Program-made: the position numbers and the translations under genes
Notes under the pieces: generated by a model
Told to the model about the DNA's origin: nothing
Databases searched by the model: none
The model's input: the letters and a program-made list of their open reading frames with translations, nothing else
Part shown: positions 1,394 through 60,583 of the stretch, piece by piece
Layout: the number at the start of each line of letters is the position of its first letter
Numbering within the stretch: position 1 is the first letter of the stretch
From: an uncultured Patescibacteria group bacterium
GTDB lineage: Bacteria > Patescibacteriota > Minisyncoccia > Phycocordibacterales > UBA918
Length of the DNA stretch: 64,000 bases
Assembly: GCA_934699595.1 (NCBI GenBank)
Contig: CAKUWT010000003.1
Coordinates: 10,130 to 74,129, forward strand
Direction of reading: 5' to 3'

Positions 1394-1777
1394 TTATGGT
1401 TTTGGTGGCGTGAACTTGTCGAAGCGATCAGTGTTAAACACACTATCGCAGCCAGAGGCACCCGGGTTATCAGCGCAATCTAGGGTATCCCCTAGGTTGA
1501 AAGTGCCGGCAGCAATTTTCAAAATAGCGAAGGCTGAGAGCATGACCAACATGCCAATTATTCCCCACATAATATGTTTTTGTCCTTCTGCCCGAGCAGC
1601 TGGATTGTTCGCGTTTGTGACGTACATCACCGCTCCATATACAAACACCAGTAAAGCCAGTGCGATCATTAAAGTAATGATCGGAAAAAGGATAATGTCG
1701 TTGACTTTTTCCACAAAACCTCGGGCTACATCCACTCCTGGAGATTGAGCGTGAGCGATAGTGATTAAATAAGGCAT
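1394..1777 (-). CDS. T4SS pilin-like small membrane protein (TrbC/VirB2-like family common in CPR)
   Basis: 127 aa with two hydrophobic helices and the motif ALALLVFVYG that is shared with the neighbouring paralogs. Confidence 0.55.
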   Translation of the reverse strand: MPYLITIAHAQSPGVDVARGFVEKVNDIILFPIITLMIALALLVFVYGAVMYVTNANNPAARAEGQKHIMWGIIGMLVMLSAFAILKIAAGTFNLGDTLDCADNPGASGCDSVFNTDRFDKFTPPKP

Positions 1778-1804
1778 AATTATCTATGAAACCAAAGAAT
1801 GATT

Positions 1805-2203
1805 CTAACCACCCCAGGTCGGTGCAGTAGGTAGAGTGGGAGTGCCAGACACACCTAAGCCGGTTACAATCAAGTTAACCACTCCGAAGAAAATCAGAAC
1901 TATCACAAACCCAGCGATAGAGTAGGTGATCAAATATGTTCCCTTCTTTCGCTCCTCTTCATTGGCCGCTCCTTTAACATAAAAAATAAATACTCCCCAG
2001 ACAAATACCAAAAAGGCGAGGGCTAGGATAGCCGGAATCAGGATGGAGTTGATAAACTCTGCAACATTTTTTAGAATGACAGCGAATGAATTACTCTTTG
2101 CCCACCCAGCAGAACCAATACCAGTCCCTGCCCCTTGAGCGAAAGTCACGAATGGGAGTACAGACAAAAAGGTCGCTAATAGGGCTGAATAAATTTTCTC
2201 CAT
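1805..2203 (-). CDS. T4SS pilin-like protein with signal peptide (paralog 2)
   Basis: Motif NSILIPAILALAFLVFVWG is identical to paralog 3. ATG at 2203; the track start at 2221 is a TTG. Confidence 0.6.
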   Translation of the reverse strand: MEKIYSALLATFLSVLPFVTFAQGAGTGIGSAGWAKSNSFAVILKNVAEFINSILIPAILALAFLVFVWGVFIFYVKGAANEEERKKGTYLITYSIAGFVIVLIFFGVVNLIVTGLGVSGTPTLPTAPTWGG

Positions 2204-2318
2204 AAATATATATTTAGGCAAGTTACTTAAAATATTTGTAAACTATCTTACATTATTCCTAATTCTAACATGGTCCTTGTGTAGATATGGCTAAATAAAC
2301 CTTCCCGTGTAGATAAAA

Positions 2319-2349
2319 ACCGCTTACTTTATAGTAAGCGGTTTTTACC
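2319..2349. terminator. hairpin aaccgcttact..agtaagcggtt flanked by A/T runs (bidirectional terminator)
   Basis: Perfect 11-bp stem followed by ttttt, read directly from the sequence downstream of the pilin gene 2403..2786(-). Confidence 0.5.
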
Positions 2350-2402
2350 GACATGTTTGAGTTGAGACGAAAACTACTTTAAAAAGCTGCGCTTACTAAG
2401 GC

Positions 2403-2786
2403 TTAAACCTCAACACCTACTGGTCGGGTAATGGTATCACCCTCAAGGCCGCTGCCAAAACCTTCAATCAGTAAGTTAACTAGACCAAAGAAAATCAGAA
2501 TAACGACGAATCCAGCCAAGGCATAGATCATCAAACTTCGACCCTTGCCCTTAGCTTCATCATCAGCACCACCTTTAATAAAATAAAGGAAGATACCCCA
2601 AACAAATACCAAAAAGGCGAGGGCTAGAATAGCCGGAATCAGGATGGAGTTGATGAACATCACCAGATTCTGGATAATTTGAGCAAACCGATTGCCAGTA
2701 CCATCGCTAATCAATCCTTGAGCACTAGCTGCAAATGGCAGTACCGCGAGGACGCCTAGAGTCAATAATGAAGAGATTTTTTTCAT
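2403..2786 (-). CDS. T4SS pilin-like protein with signal peptide (paralog 3)
   Basis: Signal peptide plus NSILIPAILALAFLVFVWGIFLYFIKGG; a tandem paralog of 1805..2203. Confidence 0.65.
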   Translation of the reverse strand: MKKISSLLTLGVLAVLPFAASAQGLISDGTGNRFAQIIQNLVMFINSILIPAILALAFLVFVWGIFLYFIKGGADDEAKGKGRSLMIYALAGFVVILIFFGLVNLLIEGFGSGLEGDTITRPVGVEV

Positions 2787-2912
2787 GAACTTATGCGTAA
2801 TAAATAATAATGATTAATCTACACGGAGTACGATGATCTCTCGTAGACTCAATAAACAATACCTCAAAAATACCTAGATGTAAACTTACCGTATCACTAC
2901 CCTGTGGGAAAA

Positions 2913-3170
2913 CTAACCGAACAGTCCCGCTCTGAGAATTGCCAAAATCCCCCACAAGCTAGATATAATTGCCAACACAATAATACCGACAGTTAAAGTT
3001 ACCCTTCCCTCAGCATGTTTCTTTTCATCACCAGCATTTATTATCCAGGAATCCACCAATTTCCAAACAATTACCAAAAAAGCCACTGCTATTAAAACTG
3101 GAATCATTAAATTAATTAAACCAATAATATGATTAACTAAATCGGCTAAGGTATTTGGAGGACTACTCAT
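2913..3170 (-). CDS. small pilin-like membrane protein (paralog 4, no signal peptide)
   Basis: 85 aa, two TM helices, VLIAVAFLVIVWKL resembles the core of the neighbours. Confidence 0.45.
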   Translation of the reverse strand: MSSPPNTLADLVNHIIGLINLMIPVLIAVAFLVIVWKLVDSWIINAGDEKKHAEGRVTLTVGIIVLAIISSLWGILAILRAGLFG

Positions 3171-3180
3171 AATAATTGAA

Positions 3181-3633
3181 TTAACCAGCGAAGGAATCCA
3201 CTAAATTCTTAATAATTTCCGCGATCGTAACCGCTCCCAAGATGAGCACACCACCGATGACCGCGTAAGTGAGAGCCGCGGTAGCTTTTTGGGTTTCGGC
3301 AGCATTGCCACGGGCGGTGACATACTTAAAACCAGCTAGAATAATGAAGAAGACCACCACGGGAATGGCGAGAATTATCACCACATTGAGAATCCCGACC
3401 ATAAACTCATTAAAAGAACCAAATCTTGACATAGGGTTTTCTAGCTTTACTGAACCTGCGGCTGTTGGACTACCGCCTGAGCCACCACTCTTACCTCCAG
3501 TCGGAGAGAGTGCCCCGTCAGATCCAAAATGTTGAGCTAAAGAAAAACTAGGCAAGCTCAAGAGTACCAATGGAAAAAGTATTAACAAAGAACAAACGAT
3601 ACTATTAGCTACTATCCGAAGTTGATTTCTCAT
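3181..3633 (-). CDS. pilin-like secreted/membrane protein with Gly/Ser-rich linker (paralog 5)
   Basis: Signal peptide, GGKSGGSGGS linker, C-terminal hydrophobic hairpin IPVVVFFIILAGFKYV as in T4SS pilins. Confidence 0.5.
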   Translation of the reverse strand: MRNQLRIVANSIVCSLLILFPLVLLSLPSFSLAQHFGSDGALSPTGGKSGGSGGSPTAAGSVKLENPMSRFGSFNEFMVGILNVVIILAIPVVVFFIILAGFKYVTARGNAAETQKATAALTYAVIGGVLILGAVTIAEIIKNLVDSFAG

Positions 3634-18209: not shown

Positions 18210-18282
18210 GGCCCTATCGTCTAGTGGTTAGGACGCAAGGTTTTCATCCTTGAAGCCGGAGTTCGATTCTCCGTAGGGTCAC
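18210..18282 (+). tRNA. tRNA-Glu (anticodon UUC)
   Basis: Cloverleaf read by eye: acceptor ggcccta/tagggtc, anticodon stem caagg/ccttg with loop ttTTCat, T-arm cggagTTCGATTctccg. Confidence 0.85.
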
Positions 18283-18408: not shown

Positions 18409-21111
18409 ATGGCTAGTCTCTTAGAAAAAATTGATGTAATCAATGAAAAAATAAACAAGAACATCGCTATCCTCTCAAATAATGAGCGTGGTCTTGCGTC
18501 TCAGGCAATCCTGGACGATCTCCGTGATCTAGTTGAACACACTGCTGTTTTAATTCACGCTGGTCAAGAAGCAGAAATTGGTTTTGATCTAATCAAAGAA
18601 AGTCTTGAACATATACGTGGATTCTCCAAATACAGTTTTCTATACAAGCTACATAGTAGATTGAATTTAGCTATTTCACATTATGAGCCTAATGAAAGTG
18701 ATGCTGAAATGCTAATGCTAGGCTACATGCATAATTTATTTCTTATAAAGAAATTTTATCTTAAAAATTATAATCATCTCATTTTACAAGATTTACGAAA
18801 TTATCCGTTAAATCTAGATCCTGGCTTATCAGATTATTACAAAGCTATAATTGATAAAATAAAAACTTCTAATTATGAAGAAGTAGACAAAGCTGATTTT
18901 TATATTGACCGAGTAAAACCACTGATTATCGACAACGAACTGTATTATGAGGTAACTTTTCGACCCGCAACAAATAATTTTGCAAAGTTTAATAAAACGG
19001 TGGCATATACAAAGCGTAAAATTACAACAAACTACGCACTTAAGCTGACTTTAGCAAAAACTCAAATAGACGTATTTGATACAAAATCACGTGTTCTCAT
19101 TATATTAGACTTTGAGATCTCAATTCGTCCGTGTGAAATACAACACCTGGGAATGATTTTTGATAGAGGTTTTACGTTCAATAGTAGGACGAAAGAATAT
19201 CAAAATCTGATGAGTGCTTTAAAGGTTAGTCAGTTAACATTGCTTGAGGTAGTGACTCTAAATGAGACCAGATTTGAAAAATTTAAAAAATATTTAAGCG
19301 ATGACGCGCGCTCAGTAAAAATATTAGAGGTTCTTGAAAAATGTAGACAAATAATCATAGAAGATTTAAATGGCTCTAATATTTTGAGGTATCTTCTGGC
19401 TAATCTAAATAATGCTGTTCTGAAGAAACAGCTAAACACCGAGAAGTGCAATATACTTTCGGGTATGTTTTTAAAGAATGGCTGTCGAGTATTCGACGAC
19501 ATGCCTTTCTGTTCATCTCTAAATGGACATAATCCAACGAAGCTTTCTTTAATTGATTGTATCTCCCCAGAAAATAGAAAACATGAATTCTTGGCAAGAC
19601 ATATTAATCAAAACGCAAGAACAAAAAAGATTCTCTATACTCCTATTGAAGAGGTGCAGAAAGTTTATAATGTTGATCAAGAGATCGAGGCTTTTAATTC
19701 AAAAATTTGGGAAGGTCACAAGCCCGCTCGTGAATTGAGAACTTACTCCAAGTATATATACAATTATGGAGCCGAGAAAGATTGTCATGACATATTTACT
19801 AAAATCTTAAGTCTTACCGATTCGGGCATTGAAGATTACCAAACACTCATTGATCTGTGGCTTGACCAACAAAGTGACGATGTCATTGATTCGGATCAGA
19901 AGAGACAAGTTCTAAGAGAATTATTTGCAGAAACACACGTTGCGCTCATTTATGGATCGGCGGGTACTGGGAAAACCAAGATGATTGAATATATTGATAA
20001 TGTATTTCAAGCTGAAAATAAAATATTTCTCTCTAACACAAATGCCTCAGTAAACAATCTCAGGGCCCGAATTGGAGAAAGTGATAAGCATACTTTCTCT
20101 ACGGTTTCTTCATATCTACATAATATTGATGAATATGGTGACTCAGAAATACTTTTTATTGATGAATGCAGTACTGTAAGTAATGCAGATTTGTTACAAA
20201 TTCTCAAGCATAAAAAGTTTGAGAAAATTGTCTTAGTGGGAGATGTTTACCAAATAGAATCAATAGATTTTGGAAACTGGTTTTATCTTTGCAAAAACCT
20301 GCTCCCGAAACATTGCATTTTCGAATTAGATGATACACACAGGACTAAAAAAGAAGACTTGAAACTATATTGGTCTGCTGTTCGAAATTCGGATGATAAT
20401 GTACGCGAAATTGCTTCTAGGGGTCATTTCACCAAACCAGTTGATCAATTCATAAAAAACTATGAGGATAAAGAGGATCAGATTGTACTATGTTTAAACT
20501 ATGATGGTTTATATGGAATCAACAATCTAAATAGACTTTTGCAGGAAAAAAATCAAAATACTGCAGTGGACTGGGGTGTTCATAGTTACAAGGTTGGAGA
20601 CCCCATTATTTTTACCGAATCGTCGAGATTTTTTCCCGTTTTATATAACAACTTAAAGGGGCGCATAGCCAAAATTGACGCTAACGGCGATGAAATAACA
20701 TTTGAAATAGTAATTTCTTATTCACCAAATCCGTTTGATGCCCATCGTTGCGGAGTTGAGTTGTTGGAGAACCTGCCAGACGGTAAATCAAAAATTAAAT
20801 TCTCAGTAAATAAACTAGAAAATGTTGATGAGGATTTAGATGATTCTGATAGATTAGTCCCATTTCAGGTTTCGTATGCTACATCTATTCACAAAGCTCA
20901 AGGTCTTGAGTATAAATCTGTAAAACTTGTTTTTGTTGATGAAGTACAAGATATGGTTACTCATAGTATATTTTATACGGCTATAACCAGAGCCAAAGAG
21001 GAACTAGAAATTTATTGGTCTCCTGAAACTGCAGATAAAGTCTATGAGAAAATTAAAACTAATCTAAATAAGCAGGACTCTTATATTTTTAAGAACAAGT
21101 TTAGCTTATAA
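18409..21111 (+). CDS. 900-aa protein: ~500-aa N-terminal domain of unknown function fused to a C-terminal SF1 (RecD/Dda/Pif1-like) helicase
   Basis: Walker A LIYGSAGTGKTKM, Walker B FIDECSTV, LVGDVYQIESID, UvrD_C-like SYATSIHKAQGLEYKSVKLVFVDE..TAITRAKEELEIYW. The gene is markedly AT-rich. Confidence 0.7.
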   Translation: MASLLEKIDVINEKINKNIAILSNNERGLASQAILDDLRDLVEHTAVLIHAGQEAEIGFDLIKESLEHIRGFSKYSFLYKLHSRLNLAISHYEPNESDAEMLMLGYMHNLFLIKKFYLKNYNHLILQDLRNYPLNLDPGLSDYYKAIIDKIKTSNYEEVDKADFYIDRVKPLIIDNELYYEVTFRPATNNFAKFNKTVAYTKRKITTNYALKLTLAKTQIDVFDTKSRVLIILDFEISIRPCEIQHLGMIFDRGFTFNSRTKEYQNLMSALKVSQLTLLEVVTLNETRFEKFKKYLSDDARSVKILEVLEKCRQIIIEDLNGSNILRYLLANLNNAVLKKQLNTEKCNILSGMFLKNGCRVFDDMPFCSSLNGHNPTKLSLIDCISPENRKHEFLARHINQNARTKKILYTPIEEVQKVYNVDQEIEAFNSKIWEGHKPARELRTYSKYIYNYGAEKDCHDIFTKILSLTDSGIEDYQTLIDLWLDQQSDDVIDSDQKRQVLRELFAETHVALIYGSAGTGKTKMIEYIDNVFQAENKIFLSNTNASVNNLRARIGESDKHTFSTVSSYLHNIDEYGDSEILFIDECSTVSNADLLQILKHKKFEKIVLVGDVYQIESIDFGNWFYLCKNLLPKHCIFELDDTHRTKKEDLKLYWSAVRNSDDNVREIASRGHFTKPVDQFIKNYEDKEDQIVLCLNYDGLYGINNLNRLLQEKNQNTAVDWGVHSYKVGDPIIFTESSRFFPVLYNNLKGRIAKIDANGDEITFEIVISYSPNPFDAHRCGVELLENLPDGKSKIKFSVNKLENVDEDLDDSDRLVPFQVSYATSIHKAQGLEYKSVKLVFVDEVQDMVTHSIFYTAITRAKEELEIYWSPETADKVYEKIKTNLNKQDSYIFKNKFSL

Positions 21112-21133
21112 CTAAATTCAATTAGCTATTTTC

Positions 21134-22417
21134 TTATTTCTGAGCTGAAATAATCTTGTTTTTTAGAATTAAATTATTCTTAACACAATTCAGAACTGAT
21201 CTTTTCTCCAAAACTGTCCCGTCTCTCAAAACAAATTTGAGATAATTTCTCAGATCTACCTTCTGTATTTCTGCAGTGTTTTCTTTGCCCAGAAACATTG
21301 CTTGAAGTCTCTTGAATTTCTTGATCTCAAGATTTAACTTTTCGGTAAGTTGCATTTCATTAAGATCAAGTGTGCTTGCCATTTTCTGAAACTCTTTGAG
21401 GAGATCGTTTTCATTTATTGCTGGGTTTTTGCACTTTCTATCCTTTGATTTGGCGCAGCGATAATATACATGTCTGTTCACTCCTCCATTTAGCAACTTC
21501 TTAAACTTCTCATCAGCGGTAATTCCCGATCCGCAAACACCGCACTTCATCATTCGAGTAAAAGCAAATTCCTTGCCTTGTGACTTTATAACCTGTGACT
21601 TGATTGAGTTTCTCGTCTCATCGAATAATTCCTTAGTAATCAGTGGCGTATGTTTGCCCTCATACCAAATACCAGCACCTTGCGGAAACTCAAATTTTCC
21701 ATAATAAAACGTATTGTTAATGATCTTGAATACATTCCCGATACTTAAGTGATAACCACGCAAGGTACGGAAGTTTAAATCGTATTTTAGCCATGCGTGT
21801 ACCTTTGAAGCACTCCATTTATCATAGGCAATTTTCTCAAAGATTTGCCGTATAACATCTGCCCGTTCTGGATCAATTTCTACCTCGCATTTGGCTAGTC
21901 GCCCATCAACTTTTCTATAGCCTGTCGGTGGTTGGGCTGGCCACAATCCCATCTCGCACCTTGTTCTCATGCCACGCTTCACATTGATACTTTTGTTATC
22001 GTTCTCTAGCTTTGCTTGAGAACAGAGAATCATAAGGAGAAACTTATCGCTTGGTGAATTAGTGAAGTTCTGCCCGAACGTTTTAATGGTAATGAGCTTC
22101 TTTTGATCCATGCGGTCAACGAGCTTACCCAAATCTCCAGCATTTCGTGATAATCGATCAGGTGCCCACGTGATAATGGCGTTAAAAATACCATTATCAA
22201 TGTCTCGTACAATCTCTTCAAATACTGGTCTTTGACCTGATTCTTTAGCGGAGTGTGACTCTCTCCTAATTTCAACGATAGTAAGCTTTTCTCGCTCGGC
22301 TATTTGTGTCATTTCTTTGATCTGTGAATCAATCGAAAGAGCTTGTTTTTCGTCACCTTCGGTCGACTTACGAGCGTATAAACAATAACGATATTCGCTT
22401 GGTAATACTTCTGTCAT
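21134..22417 (-). CDS. large serine recombinase (resolvase domain + recombinase domain + zinc ribbon)
   Basis: N-terminal YARKSTEGDEKQALSIDSQ (catalytic Ser region), DRLSRN motif, C-terminal CGVCG..YYRC zinc ribbon; 427 aa. Confidence 0.85.
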   Translation of the reverse strand: MTEVLPSEYRYCLYARKSTEGDEKQALSIDSQIKEMTQIAEREKLTIVEIRRESHSAKESGQRPVFEEIVRDIDNGIFNAIITWAPDRLSRNAGDLGKLVDRMDQKKLITIKTFGQNFTNSPSDKFLLMILCSQAKLENDNKSINVKRGMRTRCEMGLWPAQPPTGYRKVDGRLAKCEVEIDPERADVIRQIFEKIAYDKWSASKVHAWLKYDLNFRTLRGYHLSIGNVFKIINNTFYYGKFEFPQGAGIWYEGKHTPLITKELFDETRNSIKSQVIKSQGKEFAFTRMMKCGVCGSGITADEKFKKLLNGGVNRHVYYRCAKSKDRKCKNPAINENDLLKEFQKMASTLDLNEMQLTEKLNLEIKKFKRLQAMFLGKENTAEIQKVDLRNYLKFVLRDGTVLEKRSVLNCVKNNLILKNKIISAQK

Positions 22418-23889: not shown

Positions 23890-24924
<1,035 letters not shown>

Positions 24925-26846: not shown

Positions 26847-27890
26847 ATGCAACCAGACTATGCCCGTCAGTGGGCACTTGAGGCTGAGAGAATCTACGCA
26901 AGCAAAGTTGCGCAGTTCGCTCTTGAAACAGAGACGGCATTGAGGGAGACTGAGTTCACAAATACTTGGGACTCCCTCCTCGGTGTTGGTGTGTGGGCTG
27001 TACAGAATCACTTCCAGCTTTGCACAGCAATCAAAAACAAAAAAACCTTTGCTGTGTTAGTTGGTATGAGGCCTGGTGCCACGTTTCATCTTGGACATCT
27101 GACCATGATGAACGAGCTGCAATGGTATGTGCAAAAAGGCGGAGTGCCTTTGATTGTTTATGCTGGTTTCGAAGCTAGCAAAAAGCAAGAAGACTTGGAT
27201 CTTACGCACGAGTTCGAGGGCTTCAAGAAGCTGTATCGACGCTTTACAGGTGACGATCTGACTTCTGACACTATCGCTATCTCAGATCTGGAAGATCCTG
27301 CTCTCTTGAGACTGGAACGACAGATAGAGGAAGTTGTAACAGCCAGAAAGATACTCCAACTTTACGGCTGGGATGAGTCGACATCGGTTGCAAAGTTGCG
27401 TGTCCCTTGCAAGACAGCTGCAGCTTTTCTTCTGTCCTCCGTGCTGATGCCCGGAGTACCCAGTGTCATTTTATCGGACATCAATCAAGTGACTCACTTC
27501 GAAGTCGCAAAAATTGCAAGCCGATCTCTTGGGTTAAGACTTCCTACGGTTTCGTATCGCCACCTGCTGCAAAGTCTGGAAGGACCAGAAGGTAGAATGA
27601 GCGTTAAAAACCCAAAGTCTCTATTGTTGCTAGACGATACACCCGAGGTGGTCGGCAACAAGCTCAAAAGATGCTTCTCTGGTGGAAAGCTTACCGCCGA
27701 AGAACAGAGAGAAAGCGGTGGCAATCCTGATGTGTGTTCTTTCTTCAAAGTCGCAAACGTTACGCTTCCTAGAGAAGAATCGTTTGCAATACATAAATCT
27801 TGTAGAGACGGCTCTGTATTGTGTGGTGAGTGTAAGAAGCTGCACATTCCAGAAATTGCCGCAAGATTCCAAAACTTGGAGCCCGACTGA
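26847..27890 (+). CDS. divergent TrpRS-like class I aaRS paralog
   Basis: MRPGATFHLGHL (HIGH-like), EGRMSVKNPKSLLLLDDTPEVVGNKLKR aligns to the TrpRS KMSKS..LLD.PE..KKI region, but KMSKS is altered to RMSVK. RBS AAGGAGG. Confidence 0.6.
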   Translation: MQPDYARQWALEAERIYASKVAQFALETETALRETEFTNTWDSLLGVGVWAVQNHFQLCTAIKNKKTFAVLVGMRPGATFHLGHLTMMNELQWYVQKGGVPLIVYAGFEASKKQEDLDLTHEFEGFKKLYRRFTGDDLTSDTIAISDLEDPALLRLERQIEEVVTARKILQLYGWDESTSVAKLRVPCKTAAAFLLSSVLMPGVPSVILSDINQVTHFEVAKIASRSLGLRLPTVSYRHLLQSLEGPEGRMSVKNPKSLLLLDDTPEVVGNKLKRCFSGGKLTAEEQRESGGNPDVCSFFKVANVTLPREESFAIHKSCRDGSVLCGECKKLHIPEIAARFQNLEPD

Positions 27891-32851: not shown

Positions 32852-32938
32852 GGAAGCGTGGCCGAGCGGCTGAAGGCGCTACCTTGGAAAGGTAGTATGT
32901 GGGTAACTGCATCGTGGGTTCGAATCCCACCGCTTCCG
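32852..32938 (+). tRNA. tRNA-Ser (anticodon GGA), long variable arm
   Basis: Acceptor ggaagcg/cgcttcc, anticodon stem ctacc/ggtag with loop ttGGAaa, long variable arm, T-arm gtgggTTCGAATcccac. Confidence 0.85.
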
Positions 32939-32940
32939 CA

Positions 32941-33133
32941 GTTGGTAACTAACTGCAATTAAGTTATAAAGTATTATCGAGGAAGCTAAACCTTGTTTGA
33001 GCAGAGACTGTTTGGGGAACACTTTCTGAGGATTCGAAAAGCTTTTGCGACGGATTAGGAGTGGCGACAGCCCGAACTAATCCGTCCAAAAGGTGTACTG
33101 AACCTGTAAGGTTCGAATCCCACCGCTTCCGCA
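32941..33133 (+). repeat. tRNA-3'-end-terminated structured element, copy Ser-A (~193 nt), ends with a 24-nt copy of the tRNA-Ser 3' end
   Basis: 3' end ggttcgaatcccaccgcttccgca matches the tRNA-Ser 3' end. Core has degraded hairpin 1 (33003-33029), GAGGATTCGAAAAG (33029-33042) and hairpin 2 ggattag/ctaatcc (33052-33083). Confidence 0.7.
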
Positions 33134-33324
33134 TACTACTTAATAAATATTATTAAGTAACTTAATACTAAAGAGCAAACCAAGCTCTGTTTGGGCAGAA
33201 ACAGTGTGAAGACACTGTTTCTGAGGATTCGAAAAGGTTGCCAGCTATTTTGCGAAGTGGTAGCGAGTAAAAATAGCGACAACCTGTACCAAACTCGTAG
33301 AGTTCGAATCCCACCGCTTCCGCA
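33134..33324 (+). repeat. same element, copy Ser-B (~191 nt), tandem to Ser-A, ends with a 23-nt copy of the tRNA-Ser 3' end
   Basis: Hairpin 1 cagaaacagtg tgaaga cactgtttctg (33196-33223), AGGATTCGAAAAG, hairpin 2 ctatttt/aaaatag (33245-33276), 3' gttcgaatcccaccgcttccgca. Confidence 0.7.
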
Positions 33325-44588: not shown

Positions 44589-44739
44589 AAGTGCTTTTAT
44601 AATACCAAACTAAGACTAATTATGCTATTGTGAGGTCGGTCACTGACTAAGCAATTGACCAAAAACAGCTCTGCCCTGGTAATTCAGTGGAGAGACCTGC
44701 CCCGTCTATCAGGAAAAACTGTGGGCTGGAACGTGGTTT

Positions 44740-44748
44740 TGGTATAGT
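44740..44748 (+). promoter_or_regulatory. extended -10 promoter (TGgTATAGT) for tRNA-Arg
   Basis: TGnTATAGT lies 23 nt upstream of the tRNA. Confidence 0.4.
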
Positions 44749-44771
44749 ACTAAAGTAGAGAGAATAAAATT

Positions 44772-44843
44772 GCCCCGGTAGTTCAATGGATAGAACAATT
44801 CCGTCCTAAGGAAAAAATGTGGGTTCGATTCCTGCCCGGGGCA
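44772..44843 (+). tRNA. tRNA-Arg (anticodon CCU)
   Basis: Acceptor gccccgg/ccggggc, anticodon loop gtCCTaa, T-arm gtgggTTCGATTcctgc (two G-U pairs). Confidence 0.8.
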
Positions 44844-45032
44844 CAGTTTGGCAGTAAATATTATTATGCTGTAAGGCTTTATTTTAAAATACTGAATGTT
44901 GTTCGGGTGAAAACAGTCTGGGGGACTGTTTTCGTGAATCGAAGCCTGATTGAGATATTTCTCAGGCGATAGCCGAAAGAAATATCCAATTGGGGTACTG
45001 AAATTGTAAGTTTCGATTCCTGCCCGGGGCAC
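44844..45032 (+). repeat. tRNA-3'-end-terminated structured element, copy Arg (~189 nt), ends with a 21-nt copy of the tRNA-Arg 3' end
   Basis: Hairpin 1 aaaacagtc tgggg gactgtttt (44910-44932), CGTGAATCGAAG, hairpin 2 gatatttc/gaaatatc (44954-44986) with loop ..GGCGATAGCCGAA.., 3' ttcgattcctgcccggggcac (45012-45032). Confidence 0.65.
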
Positions 45033-45149
45033 TAGTAGTTATGGAATACCGATACTATTCTACACAAGTTAACCCTTCGCAGTGTTGCGGAGGATTAACT
45101 TGTGGTATAAATAACGCTCTTTCTTGAACAGGAGTCGGTTCATCACTAA

Positions 45150-45192
45150 AAAACAAAACTCTCCCACATATGTATGGGAGAATTTTATTTTG
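45150..45192. terminator. bidirectional terminator (tctccca catatgta tgggaga with A/T runs)
   Basis: Hairpin with aaaaaacaaaac upstream and attttatttt downstream. Confidence 0.55.
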
Positions 45193-59776: not shown

Positions 59777-59905
59777 CTGCCGGACAGGGATTCGAACTCT
59801 ACGAGTTCAGTACACCTTTTGGACAGATTAGTTCGGCTATCGCCTCCTAATCTGCCTCAAAAGCTTTTCGAATCCTCAAAAACAGTCCCCCAGACTGTTT
59901 TTGCC
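59777..59905 (-). repeat. tRNA-3'-end-terminated structured element, copy Gln (core ~130 nt), ends with a 21-nt near-copy of the tRNA-Gln 3' end
   Basis: Minus strand: hairpin 1 aaaacagtc tgggggg gactgtttt (59868-59891), GAGGATTCGAAAAG, hairpin 2 gattag/ctaatc (59826-59852), 3' gttcgaatccctgtccggcag (59797-59777). About 85% identical to Ser-A over ~100 nt. Confidence 0.65.
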
Positions 59906-60063
59906 CCAATGGAGTCTTGTTTCCTTTAGACGTCTTAGTAACGTAATAAGATTACGTTACATACTCGCTGGCCGTCTCGAGCTAGAACCGTACACGGTCA
60001 AGCTCAGCTTGACCTTTTAACTATTCTTTTGAATCTAAATCAGAAGGGTCTCGTGCGCTTAAT

Positions 60064-60462
60064 TTATTTTGGTACATCAAGTGAATCAATAACGTTAATC
60101 AACCAGTTACCCGTGAGCTTATCTTGCATCTGCTTAATCTGTTCTTTTGTAAACCATTGGAGGTCAAGAATTTCATCCTTTGCATATGCTAATTCGCCAC
60201 TAATTATTTTTCCTAAATAAACGTGTGTTTCTTTTGTTCCAAGAAATGGATTTTCTATTACGGTTAGCTTCTTTACTAGTTCAACATCAAGCCCAGTCTC
60301 TTCTTTTACTTCTCTAACTGCAGCGACCTCTAAATCCTCTACTCCTTCGACTTTACCTTGCTGCCAGTTCCATAAACCATAGATAATTTTTGTAGCCTCC
60401 TGTCCTAAAAGAAACCTTCCGTCTTTTTCAATCAAAACTGCAACTCTGATATCAGTATTCAT
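60064..60462 (-). CDS. NUDIX hydrolase
   Basis: GKVEGVEDLEVAAVREVKEETGLDVE Nudix box; ATG at 60460-60462. Confidence 0.7.
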   Translation of the reverse strand: MNTDIRVAVLIEKDGRFLLGQEATKIIYGLWNWQQGKVEGVEDLEVAAVREVKEETGLDVELVKKLTVIENPFLGTKETHVYLGKIISGELAYAKDEILDLQWFTKEQIKQMQDKLTGNWLINVIDSLDVPK

Positions 60463-60509
60463 ATCCAAAGTATATCAAAAGTAATTAAACTCTTCGTACT
60501 AGCACGAGT

Positions 60510-60583
60510 TGGCTGCCGGACAGGGACTCGAACCCCGATACCCAGGACCAAAACCTGGTGTCCTACCTTTAGACGATCCGGCA
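60510..60583 (-). tRNA. tRNA-Gln (anticodon UUG), CCA encoded
   Basis: Reverse complement: acceptor tgccgga/tccggca, anticodon stem ccagg/cctgg with loop ttTTGgt, T-arm cggggTTCGAGTccctg, 3' gcca. Confidence 0.85.

Follow-up and report, generated by a model that had tools for sequence, protein, structure and literature searches.

The locus described here raises the question of why a short non-coding unit should stand directly behind an intact tRNA gene and end in a copy of that gene's own 3' end. It lies in a stretch of 64,000 nt (the window) from contig CAKUWT010000003.1 of an uncultured Patescibacteria group bacterium. An uninterrupted tRNA-Arg(CCU) gene (44772-44844 according to ARAGORN; 44772-44843, with 59.2 bits, according to Rfam RF00005) is followed by a non-coding unit of 188 nt that runs up to position 45032. 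The 21-mer ttcgattcctgcccggggcac is present inside the tRNA gene at 44824-44844 and again at 45012-45032. The original prediction, made from the sequence alone, had given the second interval correctly; the first, given as 44823-44843, was off by one. The left edge of the 21-nt identity coincides with T54, where the T loop starts, with zero leftward extension; from there the repeat takes in that loop, the 3' strand of the T stem and that of the acceptor stem, the discriminator (A73) and C74. We call the copy within the tRNA S1 and the copy at the end of the unit S2 (S for either). The unit proved to belong to a large family of structured elements confined to Patescibacteria. The reading that we favour, and to which we give an even chance of being right, is that of a non-autonomous insertion element that targets the T loop, has an RNA-type fold and is moved by a factor supplied in trans.

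Three further copies are present in the window: two in tandem after tRNA-Ser(GGA), here called Ser1 and Ser2, and one associated with tRNA-Gln. That these are the same element as the Arg unit had been proposed on the basis of their similarity, and a covariance-model search bears this out. A core pattern matched the window four times, against 0.02 matches expected. A covariance model of the core, R1 (76 sequences, 4 of them the window's own copies; 89 positions, 26 pairs), gave 76-85 bits at the Arg, two Ser and Gln copies only, with E-values of about 1e-17 to 1e-19 from a shortened calibration; the next score in the window was 12.6 bits. All four copies terminate in the 3' end of their own tRNA. 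Hairpin 1 (hp1) of the Arg copy (44910-44932) is identical over 23 of 23 nt to that of the Gln copy (59879-59901, minus strand), a match that none of 100 shuffles gave. The loop GGCGATAGCCGAA of hairpin 2 (hp2) recurs exactly at 44965-44977 and at 59832-59844 (minus strand), on different, fully paired stems, and this pattern of a kept loop on exchanged stems generalises to covariation across the whole family. Both identities had been noted before. The copies share their modules in different combinations: hp1 is common to Arg and Gln, the P2 stem with hp2 to Gln and Ser1, and hairpin 3 (hp3) to Gln and Ser2. This mixing points to recombination between copies.

No known RNA family was found in 44845-45032 by ARAGORN or by cmscan against Rfam 15, even at E<=10; only 44772-44844 was called. 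A transfer-messenger RNA (tmRNA) was not called anywhere in the window by ARAGORN or Rfam RF00023. A group I intron was considered and rejected, since the tRNA-Arg is uninterrupted and no Intron_gpI match was obtained at gathering threshold or E<=10; group I introns of Patescibacteria tRNAs sit at position 35/36, unlike the present element (PMC13011429). A hammerhead-like reading of hp2 (UGAG...CGAAA) was also rejected, because the CUGA part is replaced by a helix, and a likeness of GGAUUCGA...GUAC..GUAG to the tRNA-like domain of tmRNA was dropped, as ARAGORN and Rfam gave it no support.

The core pattern GTACYRAANNNGTARNNTTCGAWTCC matched more than 117 stretches in a collection of species-representative genomes. 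Among 80 listed titles, 70 were Patescibacteria lineages (Saccharibacteria, Paceibacteria/Parcubacteria, Kaiser-, Nomura-, Taylor-, Lloyd- and Zambryskiibacteria, and 'Patescibacteria group'), 7 were unclassified and 3 carried other names on contigs that looked mis-binned. Two contigs titled Nostocoides (L075) and Patiriisocius (L067) hold typical copies, six of them in L067, and L075 has the cyclase of a cyclic-oligonucleotide-based antiphage signalling system (CBASS) beside its copy; these contigs look like mis-binned Patescibacteria, for example epibionts. For comparison we used 8-kb pieces of metagenome-assembled genomes, numbered L001 to L117 and chosen through the element itself. R1 detected 142 copies in 99 Patescibacteria loci and the window, with up to six in one 8-kb stretch; 81 copies lie immediately 3' of a tRNA and 14 come after another copy. 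Conversely, 85 of the 142 tRNAs in the loci and the window carry a copy within 260 nt. These represent 17 ARAGORN types (Ala, Arg, Asn, Cys, Gln, Glu, Gly, His, Ile, Leu, Lys, Pro, Ser, Trp, Tyr, Val and a tRNA with a CTA anticodon), and one copy (L078) lies downstream of a genuine tmRNA gene as its target. The CTA-anticodon tRNA of L095, called 'Pyl' by ARAGORN, is possibly of the amber-suppressor type. Copies adjoin 9 of 11 tRNA-Tyr, 7 of 9 tRNA-Gly and 21 of 32 tRNA-Ser genes in the loci. The T loop reads TTCGAWT in 83% of the tRNAs with a copy and in 47% of those without. Within the window three of six tRNAs have a copy; tRNA-Glu, tRNA-Val and tRNA-Phe have none, and the T loops of the latter two read TTCAAGT, not TTCGAWT.

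The anatomy of the element, which measures about 125-190 nt and encodes no protein, follows a constant order. The intact tRNA is followed by L1, a terminator-like hairpin in which A and T tracts are frequent; an optional segment antisense to the 3' strand of the acceptor and T stems; the optional hp1; the T-loop antisense GGAWTCGAA; P2, a stem that holds an internal loop and bears hp2, capped by a GA...GAA motif; the GTAC junction; hp3 (YGAANNY-GTA-RNNTTCG), the 3' strand of which is the start of the T-loop copy; S2; and the original trailer. From the end of the tRNA to the core pattern is 65-146 nt, and most copies contain no genes. The antisense to S positions 61-74 is variable, reaching 11-12 of 12 matches in L044 (11), L105 and L108 (12), and is absent in other copies. 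The loop of hp1 often reads CUGGGAG and recurs across genomes on a covarying stem. Where hp1 is lacking, the antisense runs without a break and halts exactly opposite T54 (L052, L067), so that the core is flanked by an inverted repeat of the tRNA segment 54-74. The possibility that the acceptor antisense is a copy of the tRNA 5' strand was examined and set aside; the informative sites were mixed, leaning to the complement of S.

The core consists of four helices that are kept by compensatory change. In the alignment of all 142 copies 93.9% of the cells form standard pairs, against 67.0% after shuffling; the covariation score is 0.558 against 0.145, a value reached in none of 500 shuffles, and double changes are seen in 25 of the 26 pairs. 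When the partner columns were slid by 1-3 positions, pairing fell to 36-56%, and a separate MAFFT/RNAalifold run on 76 sequences returned the same helices. P2 and hp2 show double compensatory changes at every pair. Stem B, formed by the T-loop antisense, has pairs GC 74, AU 74 and UA 50/AU 24, and hp3 has 0-2 non-standard pairs per position in 89 sequences, with 3-4 pair types at three positions. GGAWTCGAA covaries at its W with TTCGAWTCC (T/A 33, A/T about 60, few exceptions), and antisense and S pair in both minimum free energy (MFE) and consensus folds. The TTCG of the T-loop copy can pair with the YGAA of hp3 or with the CGAA of the antisense, and the data allow both. A shuffle test of a hairpin between the antisense and S1 did not discriminate (7.5 paired nucleotides against 7.3 in shuffles). 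The strand with the sense of the tRNA folds more stably than its complement in 70 of 89 sequences, and G:U cells outnumber A:C cells by about 3:1 (135 against 43, in an alignment that somewhat favours G:U), which identifies the tRNA-sense strand as the structured one.

These results also bear on the open reading frame (ORF) that covers the Arg locus on the opposite strand (44709-45032, minus), which had been regarded as almost certainly spurious. The frame exists, and if it encoded a real 107-aa protein the copies would form a gene family. However, it has no Pfam match, overlaps the tRNA gene in antisense, crosses covarying helices of RNA type and was not called in the near-identical contigs L118 and L119; moreover, the changes between copies are paired stem changes and loop indels rather than codon-wise ones. 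We regard the chance of a protein here as close to nil.

It had further been proposed that tRNA-Arg and the unit form one transcription unit, and this is plausible from the sequence. The structured strand has the sense of the tRNA, and the terminator predicted 3' of the unit was recovered as a hairpin at 45160-45181 with a T run. Many relatives, however, have a terminator-like hairpin between tRNA and core as well. The promoter had been placed at an extended -10-like box, TGgTATAGT (44740-44748); the box can be read in the sequence, but a consensus promoter scan did not list it because it has no -35 match. Between the S2 of the Arg copy and the terminator lies a strong 16-bp hairpin (45071-45108, caagttaacccttcgca gtgt tgcggaggattaacttg) without a T run, which may be the native trailer of tRNA-Arg. 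Comparison with the Arg loci of relatives showed that the near-identical contigs from other assemblies, L118 and L119 included, all hold the Arg copy.

Several features of the family resemble the traces of insertion and turnover. The match to the adjoining tRNA seen at the Arg locus is a general one, with 51 of the 81 tRNA-adjacent copies identical at 13 of 13 positions over 61-73. Throughout the family the repeat starts at T54, with 0-1 nt of leftward extension, and is 20-25 nt long, except in nine loci where it measures 32-54 nt and the trailer hairpin is duplicated too. In several tRNA-Ser loci S2 is followed by a CCAAGTCGTGC-type sequence that equals the trailer of an element-free S1 in L024, and in the filled tRNA-Ser loci S1 runs into element sequence. 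Where the T loop of the tRNA differs from TTCGAWT (the Gln copy of the window, L034, L056, L108), S1 retains the loop of the tRNA and S2 has that of the element, which places the junction 3' of position 59. Tandem arrays are present at the tRNA-Ser of the window (two copies), in L021 (three), L069 and L042. Distal S copies have diverged or been truncated in L081, L042, L043, L057 and others; in total about one third of the tRNA-adjacent copies have an imperfect S2, and in more than half the acceptor antisense is weak or absent. L044 contains two near-identical copies in one genome. Copy A follows tRNA-Ser(GCU), and copy B, found behind a CBASS cyclase and an effector with two transmembrane segments, combines a trailer and antisense of Ser type and a degenerate Ser-like S1 with a different 3' end, TTCGACTCCTGTCCCATCCACCA; it is a chimera formed within the genome. 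Degenerate S1-like segments ('GGTTCTAAC...') form the start of orphan copies and of those that have genes between them and their tRNA, such as the Gln copy of the window. 'Fossil' antisense to other tRNAs was mostly at chance level; only copy B of L044 was convincing, and the case in L097 is a decayed S2. An origin of S2 from RNA carrying a post-transcriptional CCA was considered and rejected, as CCA stands after S2 in 8 cases and after S1 in 7, which is no enrichment. C74 is encoded after the discriminator in 64 of 69 tRNA genes of L001-L117 and the window; A75 is usual and a full CCA rare.

No enzyme was found in cis. All-versus-all clustering of 1,309 ORFs from the 117 loci revealed housekeeping neighbours only and no recombinase or transposase, and no integrase was found beside any of the 142 copies by ORF clustering or by Pfam and PADLOC searches of intervening genes and of the neighbours of orphan copies. 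In the 64-kb window Pfam and PADLOC detected no tyrosine integrase, reverse transcriptase (RT) or transposase; its sole large serine recombinase, after tRNA-Glu, is unrelated to the repeats of the element. Some copies do carry genes between tRNA and core. These encode NUDIX (PADLOC candidate PDC-S07), HIT, GIY-YIG, HNH, LAGLIDADG, Shedu SduA, CBASS and DUF6671 proteins and a single RT of the diversity-generating retroelement (DGR) type. CBASS (L044, L075) and Shedu (L049) occupy the same position between tRNA and core as the NUDIX gene of the window, behind which the Gln copy lies about 520 nt downstream of tRNA-Gln. Such gene sets are integrase-less accessory or defence islets bounded by the element. 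The RT is encoded in L071 (5132-6139, minus strand; LGNLTSQ and YADD motifs, RVT_1 1e-21), about 220 nt upstream of an orphan copy, and is the only one in the 117 loci.

A fold-dependent insertion at the T loop and 3' end, with no enzyme in cis, is the simplest account of the scale of the family, its anatomy and fold, the signs of turnover and the lack of an adjacent recombinase. Insertion at this site, together with the duplicate S2, keeps a working tRNA and pushes the duplicate 3' end downstream. The mobile stage would be single-stranded, either RNA or top-strand DNA. In that form the antisense of the element would pair with its own T-loop copy and so present or read the T-loop sequence common to nearly all tRNA genes; joining would take place in or just 3' of the T loop by the factor supplied in trans, and hp1, P2/hp2 and hp3 would later be shuffled between the copies of one genome by recombination. 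A bolder version, which we think unlikely, is a self-guided mobile replicon without protein genes: a rod-like single strand (S, hairpin, antisense, core) that base-pairs with the universal T loop while the 3' end of the target is copied as antisense and sense, for example by fold-back synthesis from the terminator hairpin. Because the target 3' end would be copied at insertion, any tRNA or tmRNA gene could be used without retargeting. If this were true, the element would belong to a new class of mobile elements guided by nucleic acids, or be a viroid-like agent that has a DNA stage, and the module would mark the borders of integrase-less defence islets in Patescibacteria.

A number of observations weigh against mobility as the explanation. 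No presence/absence polymorphism was found at an orthologous site, the near-identical contigs being all filled; filled and empty tRNA pairs in the present loci are too distant to align; and the exact junction of S2 with the native trailer, which would match an empty site too, gave no match in a metagenome scan. No catalyst for mobility was found, nor was a free, circular or phage-borne form: the core pattern had no match in the 2.9 million viral contigs of IMG/VR, plasmid collections not having been searched. S2, and often the antisense, matches each of about 17 tRNA types, which the insertion reading leaves unexplained. L002 and L026 illustrate this: the same trailer hairpin is present in both, and the similarity of their cores, judged by eye and not computed, is about 75-80%. 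Their S sequences have 5 differences, yet in each locus S2 is identical to S1 for 22 nt, with a covarying antisense. Turnover, gene conversion and selection fit this pattern equally well, and copying of the target at insertion could also account for it. Cores are well folded despite a truncated S2 (92 bits in L081), which could reflect an RNA function in situ rather than mobility. Finally, the loci were found with a pattern that fixes GTAC, GTA and TTCGAWTCC, and the R1 alignment leans to its own structure.

The main rival is a host-functional RNA module linked to tRNA genes, transcribed with or just after the tRNA and acting as RNA in cis or in trans; we consider it possible but less than probable. 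It could be a tRNA-like minihelix (the antisense paired with S2, ending in N73-C74-A75) to which RNase P, RNase Z or the CCA enzyme is drawn for processing of the precursor, a protective 3' cap or insulator, or a decoy for factors binding the 3' half of the tRNA; selection or gene conversion would preserve its agreement with the tRNA. Such a present function is compatible with a mobile origin. The strand-specific fold of RNA type argues for such a role, as do compensatory changes that preserve all helices across very distant lineages, cores that stay intact where S2 is truncated, and S2 and antisense sequences that track lineage-specific changes of the tRNA (L002 against L026). The same holds for the position of the unit between tRNA and terminator, its presence at most tRNA-Tyr, tRNA-Gly and tRNA-Ser genes of the loci, and a TATAAT-like box just upstream of some orphan copies. 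However, a host RNA would not be expected to have so many diverged or truncated S2 and so often a weak or absent acceptor antisense, or to be as patchy within a genome as it is in the window, and a selfish character is suggested by tandem arrays that mix subtypes, by chimeras and by copies left behind unrelated genes. In addition, the terminator-like hairpin usually lies 5' of the core, so that much transcription may stop before the core is reached.

Two mechanisms of mobility known from other elements each explain part of the data and fail elsewhere. In the one, similar to that of short interspersed nuclear elements (SINEs), a read-through transcript that comprises trailer, antisense, core and T-loop copy and is freed by 3' processing of the pre-tRNA is copied by target-primed reverse transcription: the T-loop mimic at its 3' end would anneal to nicked T-loop DNA, and a variable cut of the second strand would give the fixed left boundary at T54 and a right boundary that varies over 20-54 nt. 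This retroposition would also agree with RNA-type structure on the sense strand, with a left end of the element that coincides with the tRNA 3' end, with the antisense of copy B in L044 as a 'fossil' carried over from a previous tRNA, and with the hitting of every tRNA type without retargeting. The S1-like segments before orphan copies are far more mutated than the adjoining trailer and core, as if an RT had read a modified, folded tRNA. Nevertheless we judge it improbable: the 117 loci contain one RT, of DGR type, and the window none; CCA shows no enrichment after S2; where the loops differ, S2 has that of the element, not of the target; and group II introns have been reported absent from Patescibacteria (PMC13011429). 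The other possibility is that the units are scars of integrase islands, with repeats that are the attL and attR sites of tyrosine integrases crossing over in the T loop and a flank that is an attP arm left after deletion. Integration at tRNA sites classically leaves a block of identity that runs from the T loop to the 3' end and varies in length, the distal copy being the one followed by the native trailer. The present repeats show this block, at the tmRNA gene as well, and some copies bound kb-sized sets of accessory or defence genes. Yet no integrase adjoins a copy or is present in the window, the viral contigs lack the core, and most copies contain no genes at all. A single conserved core serves about 17 tRNA types, and four compensatory, strand-asymmetric helices are not what is expected of double-stranded protein-binding arms; scars of this kind thus seem just as improbable. 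With the insertion reading still preferred, the features of the four copies in the window are listed below.

Table. Features of the Arg unit and of the other copies of the element in the window
Feature	Position	Strand	Evidence
Extended -10-like box TGgTATAGT, 5' of tRNA-Arg (putative)	44740..44748	+	read in sequence
tRNA-Arg (anticodon CCU), intact	44772..44844	+	ARAGORN; Rfam RF00005, 59.2 bits
S1: T loop, T and acceptor 3' strands, A73, C74	44824..44844	+	exact 21-nt repeat
AT-rich trailer with weak hairpin, counterpart of the terminator-like hairpin L1 of relatives	44845..44903	+	RNAfold; alignment with Ser and Gln copies
Remnant antisense CGGGTG to the T-stem/acceptor 3' strand of S	44904..44909	+	pairs with gCCCG of S2 in MFE fold
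Hairpin 1 (hp1), loop CUGGGGG	44909..44933	+	23/23 with Gln copy; stem covaries
T-loop antisense GTGAATCGAA (family consensus GGAWTCGAA), 5' strand of stem B	44934..44943	+	covariation at W
P2 stem (cctgattg/caattggg) bearing hairpin 2 (gatatttc/gaaatatc, loop GGCGATAGCCGAA)	44945..44994	+	RNAalifold; covariance-model structure
GTAC junction and hairpin 3 (TGAAATT GTA AGTTTCG), 3' strand = TTCG of T-loop copy	44995..45015	+	pair tables
S2: duplicate of the tRNA-Arg 3' end	45012..45032	+	exact repeat
Core matched by R1	44933..45022	+	77.4 bits, E 3.5e-17
Intrinsic terminator 3' of the unit (predicted)	45160..45190	+	
Spurious ORF, 107 aa, antisense to tRNA and element	44709..45032	-	no Pfam match
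Copy Ser1, directly 3' of tRNA-Ser(GGA) 32852-32940; S at 33112-33133	32941..33133	+	R1 33028-33122, 82.3 bits
Copy Ser2, tandem; S at 33303-33324, then terminator	33134..33324	+	R1 33223-33313, 76.2 bits
Copy Gln: degenerate S1-like segment 59968-59989, hairpin, hp1, core, S2 59777-59796	59777..59989	-	R1 59786-59877, 85.3 bits
NUDIX gene between tRNA-Gln (60510-60583, minus strand) and Gln copy	60064..60468	-	Pfam NUDIX 5.8e-17; PADLOC candidate PDC-S07, 1.1e-12

The gene content of the window is patescibacterial: LepA is 60-62% and FtsA 54% identical to Paceibacteria loci, and T4SS-pilin-like proteins are encoded. Four tandem small genes at 1394-3633 (minus strand) have T4SS_pilin domains. 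Two neighbouring paralogues of class I aminoacyl-tRNA synthetases of the Trp/Tyr type are located at 23902-24924 and 26847-27890, the second of which matches the family weakly. Directly after tRNA-Glu (18210-18282), at 18409-22417, lie an SF1 helicase gene (AAA_30/UvrD_C_2, 900 aa) and, on the minus strand, the gene of the large serine recombinase (Resolvase, Recombinase and Zn_ribbon_recom domains, 427 aa). These two genes are probably a separate integrated element; a repeat of the 3' end of tRNA-Glu was not found in the window. Two further observations were made in the family loci. When the Arg locus, 12 orphan loci and L044 were searched against Rfam 15 (gathering threshold and E<=10), the matches were tRNAs, one tmRNA and an unrelated LOOT RNA and nothing else; the last (RF03000, 81.8 bits) lies at 3808-3929 of L117, a locus that also contains an HD-domain gene with an orphan copy on either side. 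A different conserved sequence ('...CGAGCCGGGGTCGCGAGCACTTA...GTGACC') is present after tRNAs, after S2 or after a first element in L037, L030, L066, L099 and L055, and this type may be a second tRNA-linked element family.

The genomes of Patescibacteria are tiny and are thought to contain little mobile DNA. In the loci ascertained through the element, more than half of the tRNA genes bear at least one copy of a conserved structured module that is named in no library. If it is mobile, every tRNA gene would be a safe landing site for which no enzyme has to be encoded, and the small defence sets (CBASS, Shedu, NUDIX) found at tRNA genes without integrases would be explained. If it is a host RNA, the expression or processing of tRNAs would have a new partner throughout this lineage, about whose RNA processing very little is known. 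In either case the family has practical consequences. It yields spurious ORF calls such as the one at the Arg locus, and the repeated tRNA 3' ends can be mistaken for prophage att sites and can break assemblies. The R1 model can serve directly for annotation and as a starting point for experiments on Saccharibacteria that can be cultivated.

We found no description of the family in Rfam 15 or in a full-text literature search, the only related paper being that on group I introns (PMC13011429). Compared with known systems it lies outside the established kinds, with the caveat that an integrase or transposase partner would make it an unusual variant of one of them. Elements that use T-loop tyrosine integrases, and the integrase-less cis-mobilizable elements (CIMEs) derived from them, resemble it in the intact tRNA, the direct repeat from T loop to 3' end, the native trailer on the distal side, accretion arrays, tmRNA targets and occasional cargo. 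The present units differ in measuring only 125-190 nt, in having no integrase nearby and one core for about 17 tRNA types, in their covarying fold with an antisense to the target, and in their absence from viral contigs. Casposons also insert at tRNA 3' ends, with a duplication of 14-15 bp of the last bases of the gene; our element, of about 150 nt, has no Cas1, polymerase or long terminal inverted repeats.

Miniature inverted-repeat transposable elements (MITEs) and tRNA-related SINEs share with it the small size, the lack of coding capacity, the multiple copies (four in 64 kb, up to six in 8 kb), non-autonomy and a target duplication, and also an RNA-like fold and tRNA-related sequence. The duplication made by the present element, however, is variable (14-54 nt) and always of the same part of the tRNA, and no partner transposon or long interspersed nuclear element is known. 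A 9-nt inverted pair (GGAWTCGAA ... TTCGAWTCC) resembles inverted termini, but its left member becomes internal once hp1, antisense and trailer are counted. Derivatives of IS200/IS605, such as palindrome-associated transposable elements (PATE) and omegaRNA, differ in that our element has a target duplication, with no TnpA or TnpB relatives among its neighbours and no Rfam match.

The bridge and seek RNAs of IS110/IS1111, the omegaRNA of TnpB and the CRISPR RNA of type V-K CRISPR-associated transposons (CASTs) are, like the present core, structured non-coding RNAs at the end of an element that match or complement the target, and V-K CASTs home to tRNA genes with a tRNA-matching guide. Here, however, no recombinase, TnpB, Cas12k or Tns genes were seen in the window or among the neighbours (for V-K CASTs, none of Cas12k, TnsB, TnsC and TniQ), and the scaffolds are unrelated, having no Rfam match. 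The DNA of the present element contains a duplicate of the target segment, and it is with this duplicate that the complementary segment pairs. IS110/IS1111 combine a DEDD/serine recombinase and a non-coding RNA with a 2-nt core; the present element has a long repeat, such a gene was not seen in the window or among the neighbours, and all that the two have in common is the principle of a target-complementary segment.

In the folded attP of CTXphi, two inverted target copies about 90 nt apart form a hairpin that is used by the host recombinase. Integrative mobile elements exploiting Xer recombinases (IMEX) of this type differ from the present family in several respects. Here the T loop and 3' end of a tRNA take the place of dif as the target, a site of Xer type cannot be recognised, phage genes are lacking, the size is 100-fold smaller, and a single-stranded DNA stage is purely inferred. 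What they have in common is the lack of a recombinase of their own, inverted target copies about 85-110 nt apart that fold into a forked hairpin mimicking the duplex target, the formation of arrays and selection on a single-strand fold. By analogy, the folded attP of CTXphi would be the closest mechanistic counterpart of the element behind tRNA-Arg.

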